Virus record (IMG/VR): IMGVR_UViG_3300038829_000108
Location: 1-43,053 of that record
From: a virus
Length of the DNA stretch: 43,053 nucleotides
Direction: 5' to 3' (one strand)
Made by a program: the position numbers and the translations under genes. Every line of letters starts with the position of its first letter. Position 1 is the first letter of the stretch. This document shows positions 5,897 to 34,323 of the stretch, one piece after another. Under the pieces are notes generated by a model. The model saw only the letters and a program-made list of their open reading frames with translations. It was not told where the DNA came from and made no database searches.

Positions 5897-5911
5897 GAAA
5901 ATTCTCCTTGT

Positions 5912-6697: not shown

Positions 6698-6723
6698 ATT
6701 GTTCTCCTTACAACAATCTTCCT

Positions 6724-12774: not shown

Positions 12775-14025
12775 TCAAGCCATTTGTGTTGATAAAAGAA
12801 CTGGCGTTTGTCCGCTGAACTGCGCCCATCTTTCAATCGTCACTGCCGCGTAGATCGTATCCAACTCCACTGCCCTGCATCGCCTCCCGAGTTGCTCACA
12901 GACAATTAAAGTTGTCCCGCTCCCAACAAATGGGTCAATCACTATATCGCCAGGCAAGCTCGAATTATTCAGCGATCTCTCCACCAGCGGAAGCGGCTTC
13001 ATGGTTGGATGATCGTCACTGCGCTTCGGTCTATCTATTTGCCAAACATCTGATTGTTTGCGGTCTGTAACTTCTCGCACTCGTGAAGCGTCGCTTTTCC
13101 ATCCATACCAGAGCGGCTCGAATTGCGTATGATAGTCTTTGCGTGAAAGCACAAGTTGATCCTTCATCCAAATGATCGTACTTGACCAATGGAAGCCTTT
13201 ATCCCTCAAGACCTTGTCAATCACGGGCCACTCCTGCGCGCTCATTGCCAAATAGATCAACGCGCCTGGCTCGCAAGCATTCCAAATACTATTCACTGCC
13301 GCGCGCATGAACTCAGGAAATTTCTCTCCCAAATTATCGTTTTTCATTGTTCGTTTTTTATAACCCTGAGGGTTATCTTTTTCAATGTGCCCGCCATAAT
13401 CCACATTCCATGGCGGATCAGTCCAGCAAATCTGCGCTTTCTCTCCCTGCATCAATTTATCCATCACGCTTTCATCTGTGCAATCTCCAACAAATAACCG
13501 ATGATTTCCCAACGTCCACAATTGACCTTCTTCCACTTTCCATTTCTGAACCAATTCATCGGCTTGATCCATAAGTTCAGCAGGATCGGCGGTTTCCTCC
13601 TGTATATTTGCATCCGCCTGAAGAAGTAACTTCTGCAATTCCTTGTCCAGAAAACCGAGCGAATCAAAATCCAGACCAAGCGCAGCATCCTGCGCGATCA
13701 CATCCGCGTCCCACTCCAAATCAATTTCAGCCACGCGATTATCAAGGTATGCCAATCGTCGCGCCTCACCTGCAGAGTCTTCAAGATCTAAATCCTGACG
13801 CTGAACGACAACGAGTTCATCCCGATTGGTTGGAATGATCCGCACCTTCATTCCCGCCTTCCTCGCCGCCTCCAACGTCTTATTACCAGCAATCACATGC
13901 CCATCTTTATCCACCAGGATGGATCGCCCTGCTCCCAATTCCTTTATGGATTGCTCAAGCAGTTCTCTTCCGCGCCCTGTGCCTTTATTCGCATTGTGAT
14001 TGTCATATTGTAAATTGTCACTCAT
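12775..14025 (-). CDS. ParB-N domain fused to a beta-class DNA methyltransferase (DPPW, likely N6-adenine)
   Basis: ATG at 14025 overlaps the upstream TGA (ATGA) after GGAGGA. The ParB-like N-domain contains GRSILVDKDGHVIAGNKTLEAARKAG. Motif IV is TDPPW and precedes motif I IDPFVGSGTT. Confidence 0.85.
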   Translation of the reverse strand: MSDNLQYDNHNANKGTGRGRELLEQSIKELGAGRSILVDKDGHVIAGNKTLEAARKAGMKVRIIPTNRDELVVVQRQDLDLEDSAGEARRLAYLDNRVAEIDLEWDADVIAQDAALGLDFDSLGFLDKELQKLLLQADANIQEETADPAELMDQADELVQKWKVEEGQLWTLGNHRLFVGDCTDESVMDKLMQGEKAQICWTDPPWNVDYGGHIEKDNPQGYKKRTMKNDNLGEKFPEFMRAAVNSIWNACEPGALIYLAMSAQEWPVIDKVLRDKGFHWSSTIIWMKDQLVLSRKDYHTQFEPLWYGWKSDASRVREVTDRKQSDVWQIDRPKRSDDHPTMKPLPLVERSLNNSSLPGDIVIDPFVGSGTTLIVCEQLGRRCRAVELDTIYAAVTIERWAQFSGQTPVLLSTQMA

Positions 14026-15416
14026 ACATCCTCCGCTAATATCGGGTTTTTGCCCGTCAATAAATACCACCTCTCTAATGTAGCCGCCACATATTTGGGC
14101 AACAGTTCACTGCCATAACAAATTCTGCCCATCACCTCGCAGGCGATCAACGTTGTCCCGCTTCCGCAGAATGGCTCAAAGACGATCTCGCCGCGCTTTG
14201 TATAAAGCATCAAATGACGGATTGGCAACTCCAACGGAAACGCCGCCTCATGTCCGTTTGACCTGGCATTGCCTTTTATATCGTCCCAATATGCGCGCAG
14301 CGCCCACGTTGTTCCCGTCCATTCCTGCCCGCGTTGTTTTCCTTGTTTATGATAAAAAGTCAAAAGACTCTGCACATCGTCTTCGCGCACAGCATCTTCA
14401 AATTTCATCGTCTGACCTTCAGCGTGTTCGTATGTCCCTAAAAATTCACAATGCTGATCTATCACATCCGCCCTGGGCGATGTACTCATCAATTGTCCCT
14501 CCTTCAGCCAATGACGTACATGCCGCAAATTCCAACCGCGAGATCTCAAATCATTTGTCCACTGGTCAATCAATAGCAATACATGCCGCTTTGCCTTCTT
14601 GTCGAATGCGGTTGTAAATCCAGTGCCCGTATTGATCACAATTCTACTTTCGTCTCTCCGCGTTACTGCGTCAATCACGCCGCATATTTGTTCAATGAAT
14701 TCTGAAATCTGTTCTTCGCTCGTCTGTGTTTCATATCCCTTGCCCACCCAATAAGGCGGACTGGTAAAGGTCAAAGCCGCCTTGTCGCTTCCCATCAGAC
14801 GATCCATGTTCCCCATGTCAGTTGCATCTCCGCAGATCAACCGATGGTTTCCCATCTTCCATACCTGTCCCACCTCCACGCCCCATTTGACGGTCAGCTC
14901 GTCGCCCTTTTCGCTCTGGTCACCTGGGTCTTTTCCTGCTTCATCCCCAATTCCAGCCTGATCCAGCAACTGGCGCAACTCCCCCTCGAGGAAACCAACC
15001 CCATCAAGTTCAAGACCTGCCGCCATATCGTCAGCCAATTGCTCTGCATCCCAATTCAAGTCCAATTCACTCACGCGATTATCCATGTATGCCAGGCGTC
15101 GAGCTTCACCAGATGAATCATTCAGATCCAGATCAGTTCGTTGAACAGCGACCAGCTCATCCCGTCCCGCCTGAACGATACGGACTTTCAACCCTGCCTC
15201 CTGCGCCGCATCGAATGTCTTATTGCCAGCGATCAACTTTCCATTCTTATCCAACAGGACAGAACGTCCGCCTCCCAGCTCGCGCACCGACTGAGTCAAA
15301 AGTTTCTTGCCGCGCTCCGTGCCTTTATTGGCATTATGTTCATCGTGAGTGATTTCCCCCTCTCCATTTGTACTCAAATGGGGAGGGGTCAGGGGTGGGG
15401 TCGGGTTATTCGTCAT
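14022..15416 (-). CDS. ParB-N domain fused to a beta-class DNA methyltransferase (SPPY, likely N4-cytosine)
   Basis: The N-domain is paralogous to the downstream gene. Motif IV is TSPPY and motif I is FEPFCGSGTT. The first ~20 codons are encoded by repeat element H. Confidence 0.8.
   Translation of the reverse strand: MTNNPTPPLTPPHLSTNGEGEITHDEHNANKGTERGKKLLTQSVRELGGGRSVLLDKNGKLIAGNKTFDAAQEAGLKVRIVQAGRDELVAVQRTDLDLNDSSGEARRLAYMDNRVSELDLNWDAEQLADDMAAGLELDGVGFLEGELRQLLDQAGIGDEAGKDPGDQSEKGDELTVKWGVEVGQVWKMGNHRLICGDATDMGNMDRLMGSDKAALTFTSPPYWVGKGYETQTSEEQISEFIEQICGVIDAVTRRDESRIVINTGTGFTTAFDKKAKRHVLLLIDQWTNDLRSRGWNLRHVRHWLKEGQLMSTSPRADVIDQHCEFLGTYEHAEGQTMKFEDAVREDDVQSLLTFYHKQGKQRGQEWTGTTWALRAYWDDIKGNARSNGHEAAFPLELPIRHLMLYTKRGEIVFEPFCGSGTTLIACEVMGRICYGSELLPKYVAATLERWYLLTGKNPILAEDV
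15357..15406 (-). repeat. Stem-loop element, copy H (inside the methyltransferase N-terminal codons)
   Basis: CCCCTCTCCATTTG-TACT-CAAATGGGGAGGGG, then TCAGGGGTGGGGTCGGGT. It abuts the TerS-like stop at 15406. Confidence 0.75.
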
Positions 15417-19524: not shown

Positions 19525-20523
19525 CTACTTCATTCGTAGTGCCGCCTTATACAACCCGCGGCTGATTGGCATAATCGGATCGTCGAAAAACACAGCACGC
19601 CCATTGAATTTCTCGGTCAAATGGTTTCGCAATAAGATCGCGCCGCCGCCAACTACAAAGACTTTTGCAAAACGCTCCCACTCCTCACCGCGCCATTTCT
19701 CATTCAAAAAGCGATCAACCTCAGTCCACCACGCATCGAGAAACGGATTTACGCTGAACTGCTCAGGCAACTCGTCCGATTGTAGTAACTCGCTCCATTC
19801 CCCAAAATAATAGCGGTCATGCGGATCAGAAACAGATTTCAACCAGCGCACCCCAATCGGCTTACCGCCGCAATAACGACGTGTATCAATATCCTTCCAC
19901 GTCACCTGTGTTTCGACAGTTGACGAACCAATTGAAATAGCGCCATTCTCGCGCTTCATTACCTGCGCCCTTGCATCGTCAATTGGGTTCCCATCCATTC
20001 CAAAGACATAATCCGTCTGCACGCCAAAAGCCTGCGGGGCAAGCCCAACCTTCACAATCGTCGCGGACATATTTGTCCCGTCCGCCAGCCACTCATGCAA
20101 CCCGCCAATCCAACCCTTAATCTGGCGATTCCATTTATCAACCTGCCCTTTATCTCCATCCAACAATTGATATGGCAAACCAACTACTACCTCAATCGGC
20201 TCTGAATAATCCACGCCAAATTTGCGCTGATATGCCGTCAATGCCCCCGCTAAAATTGCACGCATCTCAATGGTGGCATTCGTCAATTGATCCATCGAAA
20301 AGTTTTCCAACGGTTGAATTCCCGCGCGGTGTGCATTATGACCAACGAACAATTCATGTCCATCCATCTCAACCAGCATCGGTCGATTTTTCTTCGAGCG
20401 GCTTACCAACTCCGCGCTATTCCCGCCAGGCAGCGCCGCCAGACTTGGAAACAAAATGCTTCCAGCCACGCCTGTTATCTTTACTGACGAACGTCCCATA
20501 TCCACACCAAGTTTTATATTCAT
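19525..20523 (-). CDS. Actin-fold ParM/StbA-like ATPase
   Basis: Actin-fold motif series: GVDMGRSSVK (phosphate 1), VVVGLP, AISIGSSTVE (phosphate 2), VFVVGGGA (adenosine). Confidence 0.6.
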   Translation of the reverse strand: MNIKLGVDMGRSSVKITGVAGSILFPSLAALPGGNSAELVSRSKKNRPMLVEMDGHELFVGHNAHRAGIQPLENFSMDQLTNATIEMRAILAGALTAYQRKFGVDYSEPIEVVVGLPYQLLDGDKGQVDKWNRQIKGWIGGLHEWLADGTNMSATIVKVGLAPQAFGVQTDYVFGMDGNPIDDARAQVMKRENGAISIGSSTVETQVTWKDIDTRRYCGGKPIGVRWLKSVSDPHDRYYFGEWSELLQSDELPEQFSVNPFLDAWWTEVDRFLNEKWRGEEWERFAKVFVVGGGAILLRNHLTEKFNGRAVFFDDPIMPISRGLYKAALRMK

Positions 20524-21973: not shown

Positions 21974-22317
21974 ATGAACCAAATGAACCTAGTTAATGAA
22001 CCTGACCGTCATTCCGCTTCATTTTCACTTCATAAACTCACTGCCGTAATAGGCGATGTTTTCAAAAAACGATTAAATATCTTTACTTCATAAAGGTTCA
22101 TAAGGTTCATTAAATATGCGCTCGGATTGGTTTTCACCCCACCCAAAACGCCTCCACGCCAGTCAAAAACCAATTTAATGAAGCAAATGAACCTTTATGA
22201 ACCTAAAAACAGGGTTCCGTACCGTTCATTTGAAAAAAAATCGCGCATATTTTTTCCTAATGCCGTATGCCCCCCTTTTTGCTTCATAAGCTTCATAAGG
22301 TTCATTAATCCATTCAT
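21974..22317. repeat. Iteron array: about 17 copies of ATGAA(C/G)C / G(G/C)TTCAT in alternating oriented triplets
   Basis: Plus-strand ATGAACC at 21974, 21983, 21996, 22187 and 22197; ATGAAGC at 22178. Inverted copies (G/C)(G/C)TTCAT at 22016, 22028, 22086, 22095, 22104, 22223, 22281, 22290, 22299 and 22311. Spacing within clusters is 9-13 bp. Confidence 0.85.
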
Positions 22318-25300
22318 TACTTTTCGTCTCCATCTTGATAATCTTCCATCCATTGCGCGTTGGCAGATGGAACATAATCATCCAATCTCGCCTGCGCTGG
22401 CTCAGACGCAACTGGTTCAGCCTCGTCCTCGCTCTTATAGTTCGGGTTGTAATCATTTTCTAAATCCAACCCCAGCCGCATTCGCGCAATATCCAAACGC
22501 TTCCTTTCCAAAACTACCGCAAACCCGCCCCCTGCGCTTCCAGCACGCTCCACGGGCAGCCGAAATGCCTCGTGACAAACTTTGCCCGCTGTCTGGCTCT
22601 GCGTTTTCTTGCGTCGCTTTTTTTCTTCCTCGGTTTCATCAATACTCTCAAGATCGAAAAACTCATTCAAAATCTTCGCCAGATCTTTATACAAAATGTA
22701 GCGCACTACCCCGTGCTTGCCCAATTTTCCGAACTTCACTAAATTCTTATATCCGCTCACTTTCTGTGCGTAGATCGGGCTTGCCTTCGGCTTGATTCCA
22801 TCCTCCAAATCCTTTGCAATTTCCGCCGCCAGCGCCGCGCGCAAAACCATCGCCTCAAATGAACCCGATAACTCAATCAATTGATCTTCAAAATTTGCCC
22901 GTCCGATCACAAACAGATCGTTGAATAAATCCATATCTTTTTGTTTGATCGCCATCACCTTTACCGCGCGAAATAATTGATTCGTGCGCGCATCCACCAG
23001 CACATCATTTAATTTATGTGTTGCGCGTTCTTCCTTTGTTAACTCAATCCGTGGCATCCATGTTTCCAATCGCCACCGCAGGCATATATTCCGAATCCCC
23101 TCAGCCTCTTCCTCCAACTCAGGCGGATAATATCCAGGCTCATATCCATCTCTATCGAGCGTAATCATGTCAGTCTTTGTCAAATAAAAAGTCATGAAGC
23201 GGCTTTCAAGCCCTTTATCTTTCGTGGGCTTATAACCAGTCGCCATTGTCGGACCATAAATCGGCGTGTTCGCAGGGATAAAAGTTTTTCCGTTTGGCGT
23301 CATCACTTCCATCATCTTGAATGAATGTGCCATGCGACGCATCGGACGCGCCTTCATATAGCCCGCCAGTGTCCCATCGTCCCGCTGAAGCGCGGAGTCA
23401 TACTCATCAATCATGTCAGTCGCGTGATAAATTTTTGCCAGCCCCTCATGTGATTTCGCCGTAGTAGTGGCAGCCGTCACTGCGAACCGATAAGAAGTCA
23501 GTCCCACCAAATACATCAAATCAGATTTACCGCTTCCAGCAGGCCCCAAACAGCGCAGCATATTGATCGTATCGAAACAATCGTACACATGCGTATTGAC
23601 TGACCACACCGCGCTGAATTTGAAAACGCTTTTATCTTCGGCATAAAAGAATTTCTTGTAAAACTCGGCATTCATTTGGATGATCTCAGCCGTTGTGTGC
23701 TTCTCTCCCACCCGTGACGGGAACTTGATCGCGGAAGAGTGGAACTCGATTTCCTCTTGTATCGTCTGGTCGTATGCAGGCGGAATCAAAATCTTATTTT
23801 CCAGCGTCAGAGTCTTCCCCCATCCAATCTCTCGCTCATCATTCTTGATGCTCTTGATATGCGCCCATGCCAGCCGCAATTTCTGCGCCTCGCGGTCGTA
23901 ATACATCTCTACCAAATGCCCGCTGTCTTTATTATCGCGGTTCTGAAACCATCCCCCGTATGTTTCAATTTCAGGAAGCCCATCTTCGCTATCGCCAGCC
24001 TCAGCCGCAACCTTCACCTCAGCCCGCAGCCATTTGTTGTATGCAGTAGCAGCCTCCGCCTTTGAAACATTTGGATAGATCGCAAGCGATAAATCCCGTG
24101 ACAAATTCACCCGTTGCGTTTCTGGGATTGAAAGAATCATCGGGCGCACGATCTTATCTATCATCTGATTCCGCGCATGACCGCCCAACGACCCCGCATG
24201 TCGCGCCGCCAGCACCACAATCCGCTCCGCCCTCATCGGAATTTCATTCACCAGCGCATACCCATCAGTTTTATCTGCCTTTGTATCACGGATAAACTGC
24301 GCGATGTCATTCACGTCCTTGAGGGTTTTCTGCTTTCCGTCTGGACGCATCCATTCTTTTTTCGGTGTCCGACCCACCCACAACATCGCCCCCAGCGCGT
24401 TGGACAATTCGAATTTATTATCGCGTCCCGTTACTACCTTTTCCCCTGCCGCGTCCGCATCGGTCACGTAAATAAATTCCTCATAATCATTCAGCCAATC
24501 ATCCACCTCTCCGTTCTCGACCAAATGTTCCCACGAGGAACCACATAACCCGACAGCAGGCAAACCGAATTGTTCGTATGTTTTCGAATCGCCCTGCCCT
24601 TCCACAACATAAAGCAACGCGCCTTTTTCCTGACCCTCCAAATGATGATGACGATACAACGAATTCCGAAATGCGCGGCGCTTGCCGATCAAACCCTCAT
24701 TCGGGTTGCGACTTTTCCGCTCCTCATCGAACCCAGGCAGAATTCGCCCGCTCAAATACTCGATTCGCCCATCGAACTTATGCGCGTACACCAGCGCAGG
24801 TTTATCCATCAACCCACTGACGTAATTCTTAGAAAAACTATGCGGATCAAGACCCCGCGACGTTGCCCACTCTGCGACATTCCCCTGAAACCCCAATATC
24901 ACTACCGCCTCTGGTGAGAGCAGATCAACTCCGTGCATTTTCAACTCTTCGCGCATTTCCTTCTTTTCAGCAACAGTAGCCCGCCCGCTAAAGCCAAGCG
25001 TCCCGCCGTTTTGAATCGTCCCCAACTCCCACCCACGATCCAGCGCGTAATTCAACGCACCCTCATCGCCAGCGCGAACAACTTTCCCGTCCTTGTCAGT
25101 TGTCCCCAACAGCCAGCGGCGCATGACATCCATTGCCACGCGATACGCGCCCTGTTTTGCCTGCGCTGCCTTTCGTTCAGGCATCGATGCAGTAGCAGGA
25201 AGCAGATCAATTCCAGCCCGTTGCGCTAAATTTCGCAAAGCCTCATCAAAATCCCACCCTGGATTTTTCTTCATCACCCAATCAAACTGACTCCCGCCGT

Positions 25301-25508
25301 CATTGCATGAACCGAAGCATTTCCAACGCCATCCTCCCTTATGGTTCGGAGGATACACAACCAATGACCGATTATTCTTATCGTTGTGAAACGGGCAAAA
25401 TCCAACCCACCCCCGCCCGCTCTTCTTCAACTTAACCGAAGCGATTTCATTCACCAGTTCGGATAAATCCACTTGCGCTTTGATGTCGTCAACAATTGTC
25501 ATTTTCAC
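22317..25508 (-). CDS. DnaG-type primase (CHC2 Zn finger + Toprim) fused to a P-loop helicase
   Basis: CPFHNDKNNRSLVVY...CFGSC zinc finger, VVEGQGD Toprim, GPAGSGKSD Walker A. The GTG at 25508 or the ATG at 25502 could be the start. Confidence 0.85.
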   Translation of the reverse strand: MKMTIVDDIKAQVDLSELVNEIASVKLKKSGRGWVGFCPFHNDKNNRSLVVYPPNHKGGWRWKCFGSCNDGGSQFDWVMKKNPGWDFDEALRNLAQRAGIDLLPATASMPERKAAQAKQGAYRVAMDVMRRWLLGTTDKDGKVVRAGDEGALNYALDRGWELGTIQNGGTLGFSGRATVAEKKEMREELKMHGVDLLSPEAVVILGFQGNVAEWATSRGLDPHSFSKNYVSGLMDKPALVYAHKFDGRIEYLSGRILPGFDEERKSRNPNEGLIGKRRAFRNSLYRHHHLEGQEKGALLYVVEGQGDSKTYEQFGLPAVGLCGSSWEHLVENGEVDDWLNDYEEFIYVTDADAAGEKVVTGRDNKFELSNALGAMLWVGRTPKKEWMRPDGKQKTLKDVNDIAQFIRDTKADKTDGYALVNEIPMRAERIVVLAARHAGSLGGHARNQMIDKIVRPMILSIPETQRVNLSRDLSLAIYPNVSKAEAATAYNKWLRAEVKVAAEAGDSEDGLPEIETYGGWFQNRDNKDSGHLVEMYYDREAQKLRLAWAHIKSIKNDEREIGWGKTLTLENKILIPPAYDQTIQEEIEFHSSAIKFPSRVGEKHTTAEIIQMNAEFYKKFFYAEDKSVFKFSAVWSVNTHVYDCFDTINMLRCLGPAGSGKSDLMYLVGLTSYRFAVTAATTTAKSHEGLAKIYHATDMIDEYDSALQRDDGTLAGYMKARPMRRMAHSFKMMEVMTPNGKTFIPANTPIYGPTMATGYKPTKDKGLESRFMTFYLTKTDMITLDRDGYEPGYYPPELEEEAEGIRNICLRWRLETWMPRIELTKEERATHKLNDVLVDARTNQLFRAVKVMAIKQKDMDLFNDLFVIGRANFEDQLIELSGSFEAMVLRAALAAEIAKDLEDGIKPKASPIYAQKVSGYKNLVKFGKLGKHGVVRYILYKDLAKILNEFFDLESIDETEEEKKRRKKTQSQTAGKVCHEAFRLPVERAGSAGGGFAVVLERKRLDIARMRLGLDLENDYNPNYKSEDEAEPVASEPAQARLDDYVPSANAQWMEDYQDGDEK

Positions 25509-25646
25509 CGCTCACACCATTCAGATTTTTTCAAACCGTCCACACACCATTTCTTACAACATGTTCAGAATTTTCGAGCCGCTTACCGAGCCACCCACCA
25601 TAAAAAAAAAGAAGTGACCGACCCCACCCCCTCCCCTTGCCTGTTC

Positions 25647-25683
25647 ATGCAACATAACCCCATGTTATGTTGCATCCTTTTTT
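25647..25683 (+). terminator. Plus-strand rho-independent terminator-like hairpin preceded by a C-rich tract
   Basis: ATGCAACATAAC-CCCAT-GTTATGTTGCAT followed by CC TTTTTT. The upstream tract ACCGACCCCACCCCCTCCCC resembles an inverted tail of the repeat family. Confidence 0.5.
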
Positions 25684-25791
25684 GACCGCCACGAACCTTT
25701 TCTACACAGCGCACGCGCCCATTGCAAAACGCAAGGGAAAAGGGAAGTTCTCGATTCTTTCTACTACTGCAATAAGAGTGAAGGACTGACA

Positions 25792-26034
25792 TTAACACTG
25801 ACCCAGCCTCTCCAACGCCACGCGGACTTGGTGTCCTATCTCACTCACACACTTGACCACCTCATCCATCTCCACCTGTGCAGGGGACAGTAGCGCATCC
25901 AATCCAGTGCGGTCACGTGCCTGCTGTATCCGTACCTGCGTGAGCGGGACCGTATGCTTGATTACTGCCAACTCAGCGCCTATTGTTTCCAGCGCCGCGC
26001 GGATCTCCGTGTCCCGCTTGTTTGCCCTACTCAT
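25792..26034 (-). CDS. Hypothetical protein (80 aa)
   Basis: ATG with a purine-rich upstream region; helical sequence. Confidence 0.55.
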   Translation of the reverse strand: MSRANKRDTEIRAALETIGAELAVIKHTVPLTQVRIQQARDRTGLDALLSPAQVEMDEVVKCVSEIGHQVRVALERLGQC

Positions 26035-26510: not shown

Positions 26511-27074
26511 TTACTCGACCTTGCCGTCGTACATGTGCTTGCGCTCTTCCGTGATTTGCGCTTCAAACCATTTCCTGATCTCAGCCATCGGAATAGTGAT
26601 ACCCTTATGAGGAGCCTTGGCAATAAACGCCCACTTGAATTCTTGATGTAATATCCATGCCAATGACCAGCATACGCCATCAAAACAGCCTGTTTTTTGA
26701 CCTGAATAACCAAGGCTGTTCAAATACCACTGACAAACATTGAGAGCCAAATCTGCGGGACCAGAGCCGCCATAGCCAAACTCAAACCCGCCTGGCGAAT
26801 GATGAACGACCAGGTGCGGCACATTCGTGCGAACAATGGCGTGATCGTTATCACCATCTCTCTGCAAAACTAATGCCTGATTGAGAGATATGTGACCTTC
26901 AATATATGTATCCTCGAATTCTTGTTTCTTGCATTCATCTTTCATTGTTCCTCCATGGCCTCTACAAATGAGACCCATACCAGCCTCCACCGATTTTGGA
27001 TTGCTCAATGGCTTTTTACACCGAGAGCAATAACTTATTCGACTCGCGCCGAAAAAAGACAATTGTTGAAGCAT
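26511..27074 (-). CDS. DUF6011-like zinc-ribbon N-terminus plus conserved GYGGSGPADLA domain protein
   Basis: CSRCKKPLSNPKSVEAGMGLIC and HSPGGFEFGYGGSGPADLALN motifs. The ATG overlaps the upstream TGA (TGATG). Confidence 0.6.
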   Translation of the reverse strand: MLQQLSFFGASRISYCSRCKKPLSNPKSVEAGMGLICRGHGGTMKDECKKQEFEDTYIEGHISLNQALVLQRDGDNDHAIVRTNVPHLVVHHSPGGFEFGYGGSGPADLALNVCQWYLNSLGYSGQKTGCFDGVCWSLAWILHQEFKWAFIAKAPHKGITIPMAEIRKWFEAQITEERKHMYDGKVE

Positions 27075-28048
27075 CACTTCCTGCCTTTCTTTTTCATCAC
27101 CTTCTCGATATTGCGCTCTTTCTTCTCGTACTCATCGGCAAAGCCCGTGAGTTCATTTCGCATTCCTTCTTCCGTCAATTTCACTTGCTCCCATTGATAG
27201 GGGTCAATCAACTCTGTAATCCCTTCTCGCACAAGCGTTGCCAACGTGCGCGGCTCAACAGCATCCAATTCCCATGACGATTCGCCGAATTGATCTGCAT
27301 AAGCCTGGTATCGGCTGTCTGTTTCCTTCGCGGGATTTTCGGGCGGATTCCATTGCTCGACCTGGTCATAATTCAAAGCCAGCCGATGGATTTGGATAAA
27401 GTCCTCCACTTCATATCCCCTTTCTTCAATCCAATTCTTCAGCCCCGAAAACATCACCAGACGCTCTGTGATGTCTCGCGTCATATCAATCCCACTCGGA
27501 TCATGGTCGCCAAAATAGAAGATGTGGATTTGATTTACAACCTTATCTTGATCTCGCAAGACTTTATAAAGTCGCTTCCCAGCCTCGTACATTGCCGATG
27601 ATGATGAGTAGCCTTTGTTCGCTGTAAATCGAACATGCAGCTCTCTGCAAACTGGCTCCAAAATGCCGCTCAATGCGTCCTTCTCGACCATCACTTCCGC
27701 GTACATCGTTTGACCCTGCCACCGATCCACGCGGAATTGATTCGCCGCAGCTCGCACGATCTCCGCAGGTGACGTCCACGCCACAGGGATGGTCGTCTCA
27801 CGTCCGCGATCCTCGATCATGCCCCAATCAATCAGACCAGCCAAACGCGCATCGCTGATCAAGTTCCCAACCCGCTTGTACGACTTGACCGTGTTCTCGA
27901 TGTAATCCCTTGCTACCAACTGGTAATACAACTGGCGCAGGCTCAGGCGATAACCCTGCGCTCGATATTCGCTCAGAATGCCATTCGCAGTTTCGATCAG
28001 CTTCATGCTCTCTGCATTGAATCTATGGTCAATAAATTTCTCTTTCAT
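27074..28048 (-). CDS. Topoisomerase VI-A / Spo11-like protein (5Y-CAP + Toprim), Mini-A type
   Basis: LSLRQLYYQLVARDY (candidate catalytic Tyr), MVEKDALSGIL (Toprim Glu), FYFGDHDPSGIDM (DxD). Confidence 0.65.
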   Translation of the reverse strand: MKEKFIDHRFNAESMKLIETANGILSEYRAQGYRLSLRQLYYQLVARDYIENTVKSYKRVGNLISDARLAGLIDWGMIEDRGRETTIPVAWTSPAEIVRAAANQFRVDRWQGQTMYAEVMVEKDALSGILEPVCRELHVRFTANKGYSSSSAMYEAGKRLYKVLRDQDKVVNQIHIFYFGDHDPSGIDMTRDITERLVMFSGLKNWIEERGYEVEDFIQIHRLALNYDQVEQWNPPENPAKETDSRYQAYADQFGESSWELDAVEPRTLATLVREGITELIDPYQWEQVKLTEEGMRNELTGFADEYEKKERNIEKVMKKKGRK

Positions 28049-28356
28049 TGCCCATCTCCCTTGTCATCTAGGAGTTTCAACACGAATTTCAATTCCTGCT
28101 TGCCCGTTTCCAATTTCAATTGAATCAGCGCAAGCGGTGCGTTTTCAAACACAGTCGCAACTGGATAATGCCCGCGTTCGTCCTCTTCATACGCCGCCAG
28201 CCGCTCCGCAATCAGTTTTTTATTGATCGCCAACATACGCTCGCGCCGAAGAATTTCCTCAGCTGCGATTGTTCGCGCTTTCGGGGTGTTCGCTTCTCCG
28301 TCGCGCACTATTTCCAGCAATTTGCTAATCATAAGATTTTGGAGTCTGCCGCTCAT
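28045..28356 (-). CDS. Hypothetical protein (103 aa)
   Basis: ATG at 28356 overlaps the integrase TGA. GGAGG RBS. Confidence 0.6.
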   Translation of the reverse strand: MSGRLQNLMISKLLEIVRDGEANTPKARTIAAEEILRRERMLAINKKLIAERLAAYEEDERGHYPVATVFENAPLALIQLKLETGKQELKFVLKLLDDKGDGQ

Positions 28357-29306
28357 CACATCACCTCCAACGCCGCGCGGACTTGGCTATCCCGCACGCC
28401 GAAATACAAATCTGTCGTCTTCACATCCGCATGGCGCATTTGCCTGCGGACTGCGTTCCTGCGCGCCATCTCTGGCACGCCGATTTTCGACAAAGCATCG
28501 TTATATGCGTAAGCGAACGTATGCCGTAGATCATGCGGCTTCAAATCCACAACGTTTCCAGCCGCGCCAATCATCTTGATTCTGCGCCACACTGTACCGC
28601 GCGTAATACGTTGCCCATTCCAATCAGTGACAACCGCCTGCGCTTCAATCCCCCGCATCGTGAGCCATTCGGAAATTTCATTCATCGCCTCGGCGCTTAT
28701 ATCAATCGTCTCTTTTTTTGCGCCCTTGCCATACACGCTGATTTTGTTCGAGACAAAATCCAGGTCTGAAACATCCAACCCTGCGACCTCGCTCTCGCGC
28801 AACCCCGCGCTATTGAACAAGATCCAAATTGCTCTGTCGCGCAGTCCAAGCCATAAATGATTTTCTGTCTGATATTTCAGATGTGATCCCGCCCCAACGA
28901 CCGCATTCAACTTCTCCATCTCCGTCCCCGACCTATCACGCGGACTCGGCTCCACAGGCTGACGTCTGACCGATATAGTCGGGTCATATTCAAGCATCCC
29001 TGCTTCCACTGCCCAATGCACCAGCACGCGCATACTGGCAAGCCTGCGGTTGCGGCTGGCTGGCTTCACTGCTTTATCTGCATCCTGTCCCGCAAAATAC
29101 TTTTTCACATCCGTCGCATTGAGTTGATCGGGCGAAAATGAACTCGCATTCTCACGGTGAAAGAACTCAGAGAAATGACGCAAATCCTGCATATATGCGC
29201 TGATCGTTATTTCAACGCGGTCATGCTCGCGCAGCCAAAATTTGAAATCATCCATCCAATGAGATGTCGAAACTTCCAACTGGGTAATATCAATTTGAGG
29301 AAACAT
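28356..29306 (-). CDS. Tyrosine recombinase (XerC/D / phage integrase family)
   Basis: GLRESE (Arg), HDLRHT (His-x-x-Arg), RHADVKTTDLYFG (His and catalytic Tyr). Confidence 0.85.
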   Translation of the reverse strand: MFPQIDITQLEVSTSHWMDDFKFWLREHDRVEITISAYMQDLRHFSEFFHRENASSFSPDQLNATDVKKYFAGQDADKAVKPASRNRRLASMRVLVHWAVEAGMLEYDPTISVRRQPVEPSPRDRSGTEMEKLNAVVGAGSHLKYQTENHLWLGLRDRAIWILFNSAGLRESEVAGLDVSDLDFVSNKISVYGKGAKKETIDISAEAMNEISEWLTMRGIEAQAVVTDWNGQRITRGTVWRRIKMIGAAGNVVDLKPHDLRHTFAYAYNDALSKIGVPEMARRNAVRRQMRHADVKTTDLYFGVRDSQVRAALEVM

Positions 29307-30241: not shown

Positions 30242-30270
30242 ATATTACTCCTCGTTTGTTATTTTGTCAA
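30242..30270 (-). promoter_or_regulatory. PR-like sigma70 promoter for the cro/early operon
   Basis: TTGACA (30270-30265), 17-nt spacer, TAATAT (30247-30242). Confidence 0.75.
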
Positions 30271-31324: not shown

Positions 31325-32149
31325 ATGGCAACCGTCCCCGTAAAAGTACAAGATAGACTGACCACAGGCATCAAACGTTTTTTGCCAGTCCTCACTTCCG
31401 CCAAATCGCGCGACGTAAACGAATCCGACACCGTTACCATCATCACCGACATGCTCGCCGATGTATTTGGCTATGATAAATATTCAGAGATCACCTCCGA
31501 ATATGTCATCCGCAGCACATTCGTCGACCTTGCCATCAAACTCGATGGCAAAGCGCAGTTGCTCATCGAAGTCAAAGCCATTGGGCTTGAACTCAAAGAC
31601 GCTTACGTCAAACAAGCAGTGGACTATGGCGCAAACGAAGGCATTGAATGGGTGGTTCTCACCAACGGTGCGCTCTGGCAGATTTATAAAGTTTCCTTTG
31701 GTAAACCAATAGGCTATGACCTCGTTCTTCAAATAGATTTCCTGAACTCCAACCACAAAAATCAAGAGCACCTTGAGAATCTGTACTTGCTCACGAAAGA
31801 GGGACTGGGAAAATCTGTTCTTGGCGAATACCACACCCAACGCCAGGCGCTCAGCCGTTTTTTCATCGGCGCCGTCATCCTCAGCGAACCCGTCCTCGAT
31901 GCAATCCGCCGCGAACTTCGCAAAATCTCGCCTGATGTCAAAATAGACAACGACCAGATTATGGGTGTATTGACACAAGAAATCATCAAACGCGAAGTCA
32001 TGGAAGGCGATAAGGCCGAAGAAGCGCATCGCAAAGTCGCGCGTTCTACAAAACGGATCGTCAAAAAAGTTGCAAAAGACCCATCCTCTGAAATTGCCTC
32101 ATCGGAAGAGGATGAATCAACCCCTGACGAACCCATCCATGAACCCTAA
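31325..32149 (+). CDS. PD-(D/E)xK nuclease-like protein with an HsdR N-terminal-type domain (moron cassette gene 3)
   Basis: ATG at 31325 follows AAAGGAG. The FVDLAI...LLIEVKA...QAVDY...VVLTNGALWQIY pattern matches the HSDR_N_2 type. Confidence 0.65.
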   Translation: MATVPVKVQDRLTTGIKRFLPVLTSAKSRDVNESDTVTIITDMLADVFGYDKYSEITSEYVIRSTFVDLAIKLDGKAQLLIEVKAIGLELKDAYVKQAVDYGANEGIEWVVLTNGALWQIYKVSFGKPIGYDLVLQIDFLNSNHKNQEHLENLYLLTKEGLGKSVLGEYHTQRQALSRFFIGAVILSEPVLDAIRRELRKISPDVKIDNDQIMGVLTQEIIKREVMEGDKAEEAHRKVARSTKRIVKKVAKDPSSEIASSEEDESTPDEPIHEP

Positions 32150-32185
32150 TTCAAAAATCTCTAATCTCTAATTACCGCCTTCTGA

Positions 32186-33886
32186 ATGCCCCACCTCCCT
32201 CCGCCTTCCACCCTCCCACCAGGCTCCATCGTAGACGCCTACGTCCGCGACTCTGGCGGTCCGCGCCAGGATGCCTCCACCGACCAGCAAATCGCCGAAA
32301 TCGAAAAATACTGCCAAACATACGGCCTCACCCTCCGTCACAAATTTGCAGACGTTGCCAAATCGGGAGGCTCCACATCCACACGCGACGAATTCAACAA
32401 CCTCATAGACTCCACCCGCCGCGTCGAAGATCGCCCTGCAGGTGTGCTCCTCTGGAACTACGCCCGCTTCGCCCGCGACCTCGACGATGCCATCTACTAC
32501 AAAGCCCTCCTCCGCAATCGCAGCATCATCGTCCACTCCCTCACCGACCCAATCCCAGAAGGCCAGTACGGGCGCATCATCGAATTTTTTATAGACATCT
32601 CCAACGAGGAAAAACGCCGCCAAACCTCCACCGATGCCAAACGCGGACTGCGTGATCTCGTCCTCAAACATGGCTGCATCCCTGGCACACCCCCGCGCGG
32701 CTTCAAACGCGAACCCGTTGAGATTGGACTGCGGCGCGACGGCTCACCCCACATCGCCCACCGCTGGGTTCCCGATCCCGATGTTGTCCCCCGCATCCAA
32801 CGTGCTTTCACCATGCGTGCCAGCGGATCAACCCTCGCCCAAGTCCACGCCGAAACAAAAATCTTTACCTCTCTCAATTCCTACAAAACCTTCTTCGCCA
32901 ACCGCATCTTTATCGGTATCCTCGAATTCGGCGACCTGGTCATAGAAAATTATTGTGAACCGCTCGTAGATATGCAGACCTGGAACACCGTCCAAAAAAT
33001 AATCCGCGACTACGCCCAGGCCCGCACATCCGAACGCCACCCGCGCCGCGTCGATTCAGCCTACCTTTTATCTGGTCTTGTTTTCTGTGATTGTTGCGGC
33101 TCCCCAATGTTCGGCAACACCGCCACTCGTCACCACATCACAGGTCGTGACGAAGCCTACCGTTGTTCAGCCGCCCGCCGAAAACGCGAATGCGCCGCCA
33201 GTCGCATCCCCCGCCGTAAACTTGAGGATGCCGTTTTCGCCACCCTGCATGATCACATCCTTCTGCCAGACAGCCTCTCCGCAATGCTCGAAGTCGAACG
33301 TCACGCCACCGATCACCGCGAAACAAAACGTACAGAACGCCTGGCAATTCTTAACGTCGAAAAGAAAAAGCTCTCAACCCAAATCGTCAATATCACCCGC
33401 GCCATAGCCGAACGCGGGCACTCATCCACCCTCCTTGACAAGCTGACCGAACTCGAAGCCCAGCGCGCAATGGTCCTGACCGAATTTACAGAACTCAACA
33501 ACCTGCGCTTTGTAGCTTCCCCGCCGCTCACCGAAGAAGAGATCATCATTGTCTCGAACATGCTCTCTGACATTCTTCACGAAGCCCCCGCCGAGCAAGT
33601 CAAACAAATACTTCAATCCTTCATCCACAAAATACTCGCCAAAAAAACAAACGGACAGATCACAGGCTCCATCACCTACTTCACCCCGCCGCTAGCCGAT
33701 CTGCTGCGTAGCAGTCCGCCCGATTCGCCCCCTTTTGAATCCCCCCCCACGGGTAATACAATGTTGCCTATAAGTTCCCGCTCCGTGGGGGCACACCTCT
33801 ATAGGCAAATATTCAGCCATCCTATTATTTCACCAAAAAAAGCCGCTCAGAAGAGCGGCTTTTTTGATCCCTACTCTCGCTCATAG
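32186..33886 (+). CDS. Large serine recombinase (integrase type)
   Basis: Resolvase catalytic region AYVRDSGGPRQDASTDQQ, recombinase domain, zinc ribbon CDCCGSPMFG...YRCSAARRKRECA, coiled coil. A ~70-aa low-complexity C-terminal tail follows. Confidence 0.85.
   Translation: MPHLPPPSTLPPGSIVDAYVRDSGGPRQDASTDQQIAEIEKYCQTYGLTLRHKFADVAKSGGSTSTRDEFNNLIDSTRRVEDRPAGVLLWNYARFARDLDDAIYYKALLRNRSIIVHSLTDPIPEGQYGRIIEFFIDISNEEKRRQTSTDAKRGLRDLVLKHGCIPGTPPRGFKREPVEIGLRRDGSPHIAHRWVPDPDVVPRIQRAFTMRASGSTLAQVHAETKIFTSLNSYKTFFANRIFIGILEFGDLVIENYCEPLVDMQTWNTVQKIIRDYAQARTSERHPRRVDSAYLLSGLVFCDCCGSPMFGNTATRHHITGRDEAYRCSAARRKRECAASRIPRRKLEDAVFATLHDHILLPDSLSAMLEVERHATDHRETKRTERLAILNVEKKKLSTQIVNITRAIAERGHSSTLLDKLTELEAQRAMVLTEFTELNNLRFVASPPLTEEEIIIVSNMLSDILHEAPAEQVKQILQSFIHKILAKKTNGQITGSITYFTPPLADLLRSSPPDSPPFESPPTGNTMLPISSRSVGAHLYRQIFSHPIISPKKAAQKSGFFDPYSRS
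33744..33808. other. Interleaved 9-bp inverted repeats, candidate attP core
   Basis: CCCCCACGG (33744-52) pairs with CCGTGGGGG (33783-91). TTGCCTATA (33764-72) pairs with TATAGGCAA (33800-08). Confidence 0.4.
33835..33865. terminator. Bidirectional rho-independent terminator
   Basis: AAAAAAA-GCCGCTC-AGAA-GAGCGGC-TTTTTT. It lies 5 nt after the minus-strand gene stop and inside the last 52 nt of the serine recombinase ORF. Confidence 0.85.
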
Positions 33887-34323
33887 GCCAGCATGAGTTG
33901 CGCGGCTCTCATCGCCACTGCCGCCGCCTGAATGGCAGACGGAATATCCGAAAAGATGAACGCTTGCAGTTCTGCCGCCACACGGCCATCTTCAACATAC
34001 CGCGTGAACGTCAGCTTCTTGTTCGGGTCATTCCGATAAATCTGATACGTCACCGTCAAATTCTTCGTCACGTCCCAGGCAGGCTCATCAGGATCAACCT
34101 TCCTGCCTTGCACGCTCACATTCCTGCCAATCACCTTGCCGATATGCCTGCACGCCAGCTTCACCGCCTCCGAAAAATCATTCAAGGTAAGCCGATTGGT
34201 ATTGCTCAATTTTGGCGTATACAAAACAAACGCTCTCCCGCGTCTGTTGATTGTTCCGCTTACCACTCCGCCGCGATACTCCACGGTGACATTGCTATCA
34301 GTCTTGATTTTATATTTTGCCAT
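33871..34323 (-). CDS. Hypothetical protein (150 aa), last gene of the late operon
   Basis: ATG at 34323 lies 7 nt after GGAG. Confidence 0.6.
   Translation of the reverse strand: MAKYKIKTDSNVTVEYRGGVVSGTINRRGRAFVLYTPKLSNTNRLTLNDFSEAVKLACRHIGKVIGRNVSVQGRKVDPDEPAWDVTKNLTVTYQIYRNDPNKKLTFTRYVEDGRVAAELQAFIFSDIPSAIQAAAVAMRAAQLMLAYERE

Follow-up and report, generated by a model that had tools for sequence, protein, structure and literature searches.

The window (the whole 43,053-nt stretch of viral DNA that was analyzed, IMG/VR record IMGVR_UViG_3300038829_000108) carries a circular phage genome of 42.9 kb, with contig ends that overlap by 127 nt. Capsid, prohead protease, portal, large terminase and tail genes are encoded, as is a large serine recombinase that is available for integration. 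The phage is temperate, and one relative is integrated in a 4.26-Mb chromosome. The gene under study lies in a long string of minus-strand genes and encodes a stand-alone Top6A/Spo11-like protein (hereafter Mini-A); a ParM-like gene is part of the same operon. The coordinates of the genes, motifs and non-coding features at the locus are collected in Table 1.

Table 1. Features of the Mini-A locus in the window.
Feature	Position	Strand	Basis or remark
Promoter-like site (TTGACA, 17-nt spacer, TAATAT)	30242..30270	-	Consensus scan 10/12; consensus match only
Xer-like tyrosine recombinase	28356..29306	-	Pfam Phage_integrase + SAM_1
104-aa ORF overlapping recombinase stop and Mini-A start	28045..28359	-	Context, not a conserved partner
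Mini-A gene, 324-aa stand-alone Top6A/Spo11-like protein	27074..28048	-	ORF, PHROG 6247, AlphaFold2 model, hhalign
RQLYY (in LRQLYYQLV): R38, Y41 and candidate catalytic Y42; winged-helix (5Y-CAP) part	27923..27937	-	
VEKDA: Toprim glutamate E122, plus K123	27674..27688	-	
GDHDPSG: D181/D183, Toprim DxD metal-binding motif	27491..27511	-	
WELDA (within SWELDA): Mini-A signature box ("T2BI box"), E260	27260..27274	-	
188-aa DUF6011 zinc-ribbon + DUF6166 protein overlapping Mini-A stop	26511..27077	-	Context, not a conserved partner
Perfect hairpin (12-bp stem) in conserved non-coding element between Mini-A block and primase gene	25647..25675	.	Inverted repeat I5
DnaG-type primase, 1063 aa, Walker-A motif in C-terminal half	22317..25508	-	NCBIfam dnaG, Pfam Zn_ribbon_DnaG, PHROG primase families

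The strong promoter-like site heads this gene string in a divergent switch region ~2.2 kb upstream of Mini-A, which agrees with the early-operon position assigned in a first-pass annotation of the sequence. That annotation also correctly placed a tyrosine recombinase upstream and a DUF6011-type protein downstream (Pfam E = 3e-7), to which a DUF6166 match (E = 4e-12) can be added. The TGATG overlaps that it described on both sides of Mini-A hold for the downstream junction if the 188-aa ORF starts at ATG 27074 (a start at GTG 27077 gives a GTGA overlap), and the upstream junction, between the stop of the preceding ORF and the start of Mini-A, is ATGA. The neighbor at this junction, reported as a coupled 103-aa protein, does overlap the Mini-A start and is 104 aa long; it matched no family in Pfam, PHROGs, NCBIfam or PADLOC, and the recombinase gene overlaps it likewise. 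The primase is the only other recognizable replication protein of the window. Copies of a 22-nt direct repeat lie on either side of the Mini-A block in the window and are missing from relatives, and a mobile cassette bounded by direct repeats was rejected as a general feature.

The 324-aa ORF matched PHROG 6247 ("DNA topoisomerase") with E = 8.8e-109 and has at least 7,998 homologous clusters at 90% identity, and is therefore far beyond chance; the family comprises 12,044 clusters at 50% identity, and 84 sequenced phages carry homologs that are already annotated in this way. The protein is 40-48% identical to "DNA topoisomerase" proteins of Pseudomonas phages NP1/PaMx25, Chi-like Salmonella phages and phages of Xylella, Roseobacter and others, and also matched archaeal virus HCIV-1 (27% identity, whole-protein alignment). 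The Mini-A subfamily was defined by Takahashi et al. 2019 (PMC7671362), who tied it to type IIB A subunits by PSI-BLAST retrieval and phylogeny and used the xWELDAL motif to separate it from Topo VI and Topo VIII. Phage proteins from genera that this study names gave full-length matches, the closest at E = 1e-48 to 1e-73 and the most distant at 1e-8. The window protein has the described features of the subfamily (~300 aa, no B subunit, RxxYY, Toprim E...DxDxxG, xWELDAL, virus or provirus encoded), the box being S258-W-E-L-D-A-V264 near the C-terminus. It differs by a somewhat longer C-terminal helix (324 vs ~298 aa) and by belonging to a metagenomic clade, probably from Chloroflexota-type hosts, in which an Xer-like recombinase always adjoins; nothing essential differs. 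All three motifs named in the first-pass annotation (LRQLYYQLV, VEKDA and GDHDPSG) could be read in the ORF, with SWELDA in addition, and its assignment to a B-less, Mini-A-type relative of Top6A/Spo11 is borne out by the presence of every family signature. Judged by its sequence, the gene is almost certainly a Mini-A. Within the lineage of type IIB topoisomerase A subunits and Spo11, Mini-A forms the viral branch of stand-alone proteins, and the window copy is a well-conserved member of this known family, not a new kind of object. The family is among the most abundant phage gene families of unexplained function, lacks a model in Pfam and NCBIfam, and mostly carries the label "hypothetical" or, without evidence, "DNA topoisomerase".

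Conservation of the candidate catalytic residues, on which the first-pass annotation had made its reading depend, was assessed in an alignment of 125 diverse Mini-A homologs (36-94% identity). R38, Y42, E122, K123, D181, D183, G186, E260 and D262 are invariant (125/125), and the position of Y41 is Y or F in 124 of the 125. Within the WELDA box, E and D are found in all homologs and W259, L and A in 122/125 each. Between loci, Mini-A is 63-78% identical, whereas the recombinase reaches 24-55% and the primase 25-40%, and Mini-A is alike in phages of very different hosts; this conservation, above that of its neighbors and across hosts, suggests that its substrate is DNA itself and not a host protein. 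Among longer homologs, only a DUF1643 fusion and an intein were seen, with no pointer to function; the intein, in homolog P0205, is inserted 2-3 residues ahead of the VEKDA Toprim glutamate motif. As far as can be read from sequence, the location of this intein and the invariant residues would argue for an active enzyme.

In the AlphaFold2 model of Mini-A (mean pLDDT 89.8), a helical part at the N-terminus is followed by a Toprim of four strands and by a C-terminal helix; E122 comes after strand 1 (residues 115-121) and the DxD after strand 3 (residues 173-179), an order that fits Toprim topology. Alignment of the 125-sequence Mini-A profile with full-length Top6A by hhalign gave a modest score of 27.9 (P = 0.0075, 205 columns), compared with ≤20.6 for 21 reversed or shuffled controls. 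The alignment is colinear over both domains (Mini-A 24-248, Top6A 80-308) and holds RxxYY, the Toprim glutamate and DxDP in register, with RQLYY on STLREAYY, VEKDA on the Toprim glutamate and GDHDPSG on TDGDPW of Top6A; VEKDA also falls on the Toprim glutamate of Spo11. This score was obtained only after diverse representatives and full-length Top6A from archaeal genomes were added: earlier alignments to Top6A fragments restricted to the Toprim gave E = 0.11 with a narrow Mini-A profile and E = 0.0033 with a broader one, and a single yeast Spo11 sequence gave E = 0.11 in the same register as Top6A. Pfam models TP6A_N and TOP6A-Spo11_Toprim did not match Mini-A even at E ≤ 0.1, NCBIfam gave no match linking it to Top6A, and searches of PDB sequences by phmmer and with a 55-sequence profile found nothing relevant, neither Top6A nor Spo11. 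Foldseek of the model against the PDB returned no hit at E ≤ 1e-3 and no Top6A, Spo11 or JetD among its top 50, the best Toprim match being T7 primase (1nui, E ~0.05); we consider Foldseek uninformative rather than negative here because a search of BFVD missed even full-length phage homologs. Since these other searches were empty, the link to Top6A rests on the modest hhalign score, the order of the motifs and the published PSI-BLAST retrieval. The profile and structure comparison proposed in the first-pass annotation had a weak outcome, in that only hhalign finds Top6A, and modestly, and Foldseek and HMM searches do not retrieve it. The profile alignment points to homology of Mini-A and Top6A across both domains, with a signal that is modest and not decisive.

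Compared with Top6A/Spo11, Mini-A has the catalytic Arg/Tyr motif, Toprim glutamate and DxD in the same order and spacing, and tyrosine transesterification is presumed by analogy. It is ~70-100 residues shorter, the N-terminal Top6B-binding part being missing according to the published description, and contains additional invariant motifs of its own (PPxNPAK-TDSR and GYxSxS). Topo VIII, which is plasmid-borne, resembles Mini-A in being specific to mobile elements, in its shortened 5Y-CAP part and in a related C-terminal box (RVELNAM in Topo VIII, WELDA in Mini-A), but is a B-A fusion with a GHKL ATPase and transducer that Mini-A lacks. No Top6B or Top6BL turned up among the scanned ORFs of the window or next to Mini-A in its relatives. 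In agreement with the earlier claim that the genome has no B-subunit gene, a Pfam scan of 29 window ORFs, including all those of at least 300 aa and all but a few in the 130-180 aa range, detected neither a GHKL/HATPase_c nor a Topo VI-B domain, and no GHKL or B subunit was present among the 25 commonest Pfam families on each side of Mini-A in ~85 related loci.

Neighbors were surveyed by BLAST clustering within 4 kb in 93 Mini-A loci and by Pfam scans of 205 flanking ORFs. No neighbor family was common to more than 14 of the 93 loci, and a hidden partner ("Mini-B") was rejected, as neither a widely shared family nor a GHKL domain was found in these loci and ORFs. The genes that do occur near Mini-A include primases, helicases, ligases, YqaJ/Cas4 exonucleases, RecT, Sak4, ParB and Endo VII; the primase keeps synteny with Mini-A in 14 loci. 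Taken over the whole set, Mini-A lies among replication and recombination genes and has no partner common to all loci.

Overall, these observations are best explained, with reasonable probability, by Mini-A taking part in the early replication/recombination program through a tyrosine-linked break in phage DNA. Its use of tyrosine-linked cleavage chemistry, by analogy with Top6A/Spo11, is likely, and a role in replication or recombination on phage DNA is probable. The protein would be made up of a short winged-helix part with R38xxY41Y42, a Toprim (E122, D181xD183) and the WELDA box (E260). From what is known of the family, a Mini-A homodimer would bind duplex DNA, the Toprim acidic residues would hold Mg2+, and Y42 would attack the backbone and leave a 5'-phosphotyrosyl-linked break that could in principle be resealed. 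Top6A has a clasp formed by R102 and E342, and by analogy R38 and E260 may restrain Y42 until a trigger arrives; an Arg-Glu clasp is thus possibly common to both proteins. We infer the equivalence of E260 and E342 from the published alignment of the box, because the hhalign alignment ends just before the Top6A clasp glutamate. Mini-A would act early, on the phage's own DNA and with no ATPase partner, and the programmed nick or break would most likely start or restart replication, either by a rolling-circle/sigma mode or by a recombination-dependent one. It would do so beside a primase-helicase-like protein, and the Xer-like recombinase could later tidy multimers. In the literature searched, we found no experiment or cleavage assay on any Mini-A. 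Top6A without its ATPase subunit does not cleave, which counts against this mechanism in a B-less enzyme. How such an enzyme is switched on bears on the control of cleavage by Spo11/Top6A and on the origin of type IIB topoisomerases; among the living relatives of the enzyme that initiates meiotic recombination, Mini-A is the simplest. The window copy offers a compact setting for this question, a 42.9-kb temperate phage with Mini-A between an Xer-like recombinase and a primase and near a conserved hairpin element.

That the break specifically initiates replication is a more tentative proposal, with perhaps one chance in three by our estimate. In its strongest form, which we regard as possible but doubtful, the cutting subunit of topoisomerase VI/Spo11 would have given rise to a new class of replication initiators, represented by Mini-A. 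Linked to the DNA through its tyrosine, Mini-A would leave a nick or break at a specific, structured site, and the resulting 3'-OH would start sigma-mode or rolling-circle synthesis. We counted in favor of an initiating break the small replicons in which Mini-A is the sole recognizable DNA enzyme, the lack of any other recognizable initiator in the window, the hairpin, and the uniform GC skew. Mini-A is the only recognizable DNA enzyme of an 8.8-kb archaeal plasmid and of a 15-kb Zot-encoding, single-strand-oriented element, and Skuldviruses have Mini-A and no recognizable replication genes, for which a role as rolling-circle initiator has been proposed (bioRxiv 10.1101/2021.07.29.453957). If true, the initiator role would explain why Mini-A is the sole recognizable DNA enzyme of several tiny circular viruses and plasmids. 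HUH Rep and Rep_trans/pT181 RepC provide a functional analogy (tyrosine-linked 5' end, free 3'-OH primer, sole replication enzyme) that is hypothetical and implies no homology, as the folds are unrelated. The argument from small replicons presumes that unannotated ORFs of 519, 427 and 335 aa are not novel Rep proteins. IMG/VR contigs of ~5 kb were considered as mini-replicons and rejected as mere fragments for want of terminal repeats.

A possible cut site in this lineage is the conserved hairpin element that lies immediately ahead of the primase gene, at ~25.55-25.77 kb. The core of the hairpin does not vary among 5 loci, the primases of which share only 25-40% identity; one base pair covaries, and a search of Rfam gave no match to the element. 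We infer that the hairpin may serve as an origin or as a priming signal. The GC skew has one sign round the entire circle, which the dominant gene orientation could largely account for. Many Mini-A phages, NP1 and the Chi-like ones among them, come with full replication modules, and in these an initiator role is not required.

Among the alternatives to such a break, an unlikely one is that Mini-A manages DNA topology as an ATP-independent nicking-closing or unlinking enzyme, relaxing or decatenating the circular phage genome as it replicates, and that in this lineage it belongs to a module for replicon resolution and segregation, together with its Xer-like neighbor and the ParM-like partition protein. 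Its ancestry as a type II topoisomerase subunit that has kept the resealing tyrosine, the circularity of the genome and the presence of a ParM-like gene in the operon are all in keeping with this, and integration could be left to the separate large serine recombinase. The survey also newly identified the Xer-like tyrosine recombinase (best NCBIfam matches XerC/XerD/XerA, under equivalog cut-offs) as the neighbor conserved with Mini-A in this lineage: it adjoins in all 12 loci with upstream sequence and a Mini-A at least 63% identical, in variable gene order. This adjacency is confined to one clade (~10% of loci), however, and the tiny plasmids and viruses with Mini-A would hardly afford an accessory topoisomerase gene. 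Strand passage by type II enzymes requires an ATP-operated gate, which is absent here.

An offensive or counter-defense nuclease, which soon after infection would attack the DNA of the host, of plasmids or of competing phages in the manner of JetD/MksG, is improbable. JetD/MksG (of Wadjet/MksBEFG), from the same broad lineage as Mini-A, cuts DNA as a Toprim dimer with no GHKL subunit; Toprim-dimer nucleases are employed by Wadjet and Gabija (PMC13040014), and the early position of the gene would suit such a role. The sole match of the Mini-A protein in Pfam, NCBIfam and PADLOC was a weak 30-residue one to PADLOC JetD around the DxD motif (residues 168-196, E = 0.0038), and no JetABC or SMC-like genes were present among the Pfam-scanned ORFs of the window. 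In contrast to JetD/MksG, Mini-A keeps an invariant tyrosine and is encoded by phages rather than as a host defense gene; as read from the alignment, the strict invariance of Y42 would speak for covalent, resealable chemistry and against hydrolysis. Its conservation across Chloroflexota-like, Pseudomonas, Listeria, Actinobacteria and haloarchaeal hosts is unlike that of fast-evolving, host-specific anti-defense genes, its setting is one of replication and recombination modules, and it is carried by integrated prophages and small plasmids, which must spare their host.

A dedicated DNA-processing complex of Mini-A with the coupled 104-aa and DUF6011/DUF6166 zinc-ribbon proteins, the two serving as a non-canonical "Mini-B", is very improbable, and the complex of this kind suggested in the first-pass annotation finds no support, because the 104-aa protein has homologs in 3/93 Mini-A loci and the DUF6011/DUF6166 protein in 2/93 (the window and locus L013). 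One or both of these proteins are absent from relatives whose Mini-A is 73-78% identical, and no neighbor cluster is widely shared. The start/stop overlaps of 4 nt on both sides of Mini-A, the capacity of a zinc ribbon to bind DNA, and the small ORFs that overlap the Mini-A start also in NP1, a Chi-like phage and Listeria LWP01 speak for such a complex, but overlapping genes are commonplace in phage operons. Most improbable of all is that Mini-A is unrelated to Top6A and that another Toprim lineage acquired a similar tyrosine motif by convergence, as the low hhalign probability values and the lack of a Top6A/Spo11 connection in the Foldseek, Pfam, NCBIfam and HMM-vs-PDB searches would allow, for four motifs share their order and are similarly spaced, hhalign with default settings aligns both domains at a score above every control, and the relationship is backed by the published PSI-BLAST retrieval and phylogeny (PMC7671362).

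Direct reading of the DNA placed the Mini-A ORF (324 aa) where the first-pass annotation had it and recovered the three motifs claimed there (tyrosine, Toprim glutamate and DxD), together with a fourth, SWELDA, that had not been listed. The tight gene overlaps proposed on both sides of Mini-A were also seen, and DUF6011 was detected by Pfam in the protein downstream, along with DUF6166. Takahashi et al. (PMC7671362) named as Mini-A a set of Top6A homologues of ~300 residues from viruses and proviruses, without a B subunit and with conserved Rxx(Y/F)Y and E...DxDxxG; an xWELDAL box sets them apart from Topo VI and Topo VIII. The window protein shows each of these features and matches PHROGs family 6247 ("DNA topoisomerase") over its full length (E = 8.8e-109), so its identification as a Mini-A was right; no model in Pfam or NCBIfam matched, and by family membership the protein falls within Mini-A and outside Pfam Top6A.

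Coordinates of features in the window and of the conserved element in other Mini-A loci
Feature	Position	Strand	Remarks
Two adjacent overlapping N6/N4 DNA methyltransferase genes (431 and 464 aa)	12775-14070 and 14022-15416		
ParM-like actin (partition protein)	19525-20523		
Conserved non-coding element	25509-25791		between Mini-A block and primase gene, upstream of primase gene
Same element, other loci	L008 7820-8125; L011 10070-10380; L013 8086-8301; L014 2275-2585		
Perfect 12-bp-stem hairpin	25647-25675		within the element
22-nt direct repeat, two copies	25810-25831 and 28365-28386		
188-aa ORF	start GTG 27077 or ATG 27074	-	downstream; overlaps Mini-A TGA
Mini-A ORF	27074..28048	-	
SWELDA	27260-27274	-	direct DNA reading
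GDHDPSG (DxD)	27491-27511	-	direct DNA reading
VEKDA (Toprim Glu)	27674-27688	-	direct DNA reading
LRQLYYQLV (tyrosine)	RQLYY 27923-27937	-	direct DNA reading
104-aa ORF	28045..28359	-	upstream; its TGA overlaps Mini-A ATG as ATGA
Tyrosine-recombinase gene	28356..29306	-	overlaps 104-aa ORF likewise; Pfam Phage_integrase and SAM_1
Promoter-like site	30270-30242		
Large serine recombinase	32186-33886	opposite to Mini-A gene string	

A protein database search returned at least 7,998 significant homologues, the best of which, among the matches listed, were 65-94% identical and all unnamed. A profile search, exhaustive over 1.84 billion cluster representatives, gave 12,044 clusters at E ≤ 1e-3 and 7,910 at E ≤ 1e-10. 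Homologues were present in 84 sequenced-phage records, many annotated "DNA topoisomerase"; carriers include Pseudomonas NP1/PaMx25-like, Chi-like Salmonella, Xylella Sano/Salvo, Roseobacter, Brevundimonas, Microbacterium, Listeria and Flavobacterium phages and haloarchaeal virus HCIV-1. The window gene is one more member of a named, widely annotated family and its novelty is low; the interest left lies in the function and size of the family, for which no functional study was found in the literature searched.

To assess conservation, the window protein was aligned with 114 representatives of clusters at 50% identity and 10 further sequences (n = 125; identity to the window protein 36-94%). R38, Y42, R83, E122, K123, G146, S149, D181, D183, G186, K241, D244, E260 and D262 were present in all 125, so the candidate catalytic residues passed the test of conservation that the first-pass annotation had set for itself. 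One metagenomic homologue (P0205, 677 aa) carries a ~368-aa intein 2-3 residues ahead of the Toprim glutamate (RVE, intein, CWVEKDAL), with Cys first, His-Asn last and then Cys, and a weak LAGLIDADG match. Because inteins usually occupy sites critical to important DNA enzymes, this location fits a real catalytic centre. Among ten long homologues the only clear domain fusion was in P0232 (457 aa, metagenomic), where an N-terminal DUF1643 domain (E = 8e-23) is joined to Mini-A.

The evidence for Top6A likeness is thinner here than the literature suggests. An AlphaFold2 model of Mini-A computed from a 55-sequence alignment (mean pLDDT 89.8, pTM 0.81) was searched with Foldseek against PDB, and no structure was returned at E ≤ 1e-3; Top6A (1D3Y, 2ZBK, 2Q2E, 9O0G) and Spo11 (8URQ) were in the library, yet absent from the best 50 matches, and the nearest Toprim match was T7 primase (E ~0.05). 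Searching BFVD with the model did no better, full-length phage homologues not being returned either, and a profile search of PDB sequences gave no match. As modelled, secondary-structure elements follow each other as in a Toprim fold: strand 115-121 leading to E122, helix, strand 140-143, helix, strand 173-179 leading to D181xD183, then helices and strand 218-224. The PADLOC JetD model matched the DxD region weakly. The Mini-A profile was compared by hhalign with Top6A, represented by genuine Top6A fragments together with 69 full-length genes taken from the genomes of archaea. The default local alignment covered 205 columns (Mini-A 24-248 on Top6A 80-308; score 27.9, P = 0.0075) and placed LSLRQLYY on STLREAYY, VEKDA on IETGG and GDHDPSG on TDGDPWS, while controls (1 reversed and 20 column-shuffled) scored 12.1-20.6 with at most 78 columns aligned. 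Yeast Spo11 aligned in the same register, with SWELDA on NSWDIA once the alignment was relaxed. The proposed Top6A/Spo11 likeness stood, modestly, in the hhalign comparison and in the motif register and found no backing in the Foldseek, Pfam and PDB-profile searches; overall, remote homology has modest support, with which published PSI-BLAST and phylogeny (PMC7671362) agree.

The window is a phage genome, with genes for major capsid protein, prohead protease, portal, large terminase, tail tube and tape measure, plus further tail proteins. Also encoded are a DUF5131 protein, a ParM-like actin, a 1063-aa DnaG-type primase and two DNA methyltransferases, the last placed between the replication and packaging modules and probably serving anti-restriction self-methylation. 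Bases 1-127 recur exactly at 42927-43053, so the assembly is circular and 42,926 bp long, and its tail genes at 34.3-43 kb run on into those at 1-1.6 kb. Mini-A lies inside a long minus-strand gene string headed by a strong promoter-like site. This site lies where a small minus-strand ORF and the plus-strand lysogeny block diverge, and for this reason the suggested placement of Mini-A in an early operon appears reasonable. No GHKL or Topo VI-B domain was found in 29 window ORFs scanned by Pfam, which include every ORF of at least 300 aa, and the claim that a B subunit is missing holds. The ParM-like actin, a Xer-like recombinase and a separate serine recombinase suggest that the phage is temperate and has plasmid-like functions for its maintenance; for one relative (L009), integration into a 4.26-Mb chromosome was seen.

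Three modest leads on function were obtained: pairing with the Xer-like recombinase, small replicons with Mini-A as sole enzyme, and a conserved hairpin element. Small replicons need an initiator of their own and can rarely afford accessories, so those carrying Mini-A favour a replication-starting break. LC711082.1 is an 8,776-bp circular, single-strand-oriented archaeal plasmid whose only annotated enzyme is Mini-A (5801-6721). NZ_CP009289.1, a 15,151-bp circular "plasmid" of Paenibacillus durus with every gene on one strand, codes for a Mini-A (9144-10037; 43.7% identical to the window's) and a Zot-domain ATPase of a type typical of filamentous phages; no replication domain or recognisable Rep was found in its ten other largest ORFs, and it may be an inovirus-like element replicating with Mini-A. 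Skuldviruses have Mini-A and no other replication gene, and a rolling-circle initiator role was proposed for it (Medvedeva et al., bioRxiv 10.1101/2021.07.29.453957). Distant homologues (23-30% identity) were found in 34 Streptomyces plasmids (PLSDB matches H43-H70), many within a few to ~30 kb of a record end; at least one such record is linear, and on linear NZ_CP029542.1 (45,805 bp) the homologue lies at 531-1394. Mini-A might conceivably be linked to telomere biology in linear replicons.

We consider it fairly probable that Mini-A has a general role in the breaking and rejoining of phage DNA by which replication is started or restarted early in infection; the narrower version, in which it is the initiator, is tentative. 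Mini-A would act as an Mg2+-dependent homodimer, breaking and rejoining phage DNA through a tyrosine linkage. A replication-start role is consistent with three features of the window: no other recognisable initiator, the hairpin element and a GC skew of one sign. In five loci with primases only 25-40% identical, the DNA sequence of the element is conserved; its blocks GCAGTAGTAGAAAGAATCG and ACATAACATGGGGTTATGT are near-invariant and its hairpin has one covarying pair. The element has no Rfam match, and it might serve as an origin or a priming signal or form a structured RNA. Plus-strand GC skew stays below zero in all 1-kb bins (-0.05 to -0.33), including the stretch with plus-strand genes (especially 32000-34000), and the cumulative curve has no turning point round the whole circle, which is compatible with unidirectional replication, gene strand bias being a confounder. 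In Top6 cryo-EM structures an Arg-Glu "clasp" (R102-E342) keeps the catalytic tyrosine off DNA until the ATPase subunits close (PMC13040014). By the published box alignment, the invariant R38 and E260 would be its counterparts, although the hhalign alignment stops short of the clasp glutamate; if so, Mini-A cleavage would also be gated, by something other than ATP.

Partners were sought in 93 Mini-A loci (the window, 7 annotated phages, 5 metagenomic/genomic contigs and 80 IMG/VR contigs). When all neighbours within 4 kb were clustered, no family was common to more than 14 loci, the primase recurring in 14 and the tyrosine recombinase in 13. Pfam scans of 205 flanking ORFs returned most often Phage_integrase (9), YqaJ exonuclease (4), helicase domains, ParB (3), then RecT, Sak4-type AAA_24 and DNA ligase (2 each), with no GHKL among the matches listed. 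These two analyses place Mini-A, without a universal partner, in replication/recombination modules, as in NP1 (consecutive ligase, Mini-A, Sak4, Cas4 exonuclease and helicase genes) and Microbacterium phage Fizzles (recombinase, Cas4 exonuclease, Mini-A).

A topology or unlinking enzyme acting with the Xer-like recombinase and ParM is an unlikely alternative overall, attractive for the close clade and hard to reconcile with the absent ATP gate and the tiny replicons. Of the loci that have upstream sequence and a Mini-A with ≥63% identity to that of the window, 12/12 have a tyrosine recombinase no more than 1 kb from Mini-A; its best matches are XerC/XerD/XerA models, under equivalog cut-offs. 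Order and spacing vary, with a small ORF between the two genes in the window and L008, direct overlap in L011 and the recombinase downstream in L020. Phages of this clade also carry a large serine recombinase, and Mini-A is far more conserved (63-78% identity to the window) than the recombinase (24-55%) or primase (25-40%). A nuclease aimed at the host or a competitor is improbable, the invariant tyrosine and the conservation across hosts both counting against it. Similarly improbable is the first-pass proposal of a complex with the two coupled neighbours, of which the 104-aa protein recurs in 3/93 loci and the DUF6011/6166 protein in 2/93; neither is conserved with Mini-A. That Mini-A has no true kinship to Top6A is least credible.

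The two copies of the 22-nt direct repeat (21/22 identical) lie at the 3' ends of an 80-aa ORF and the tyrosine-recombinase gene and flank a 2.5-kb block of Mini-A and four small ORFs. No counterpart was found in relatives, and the repeat may be a recombination scar or a chance likeness of two C-terminal peptides (QVRxALE).
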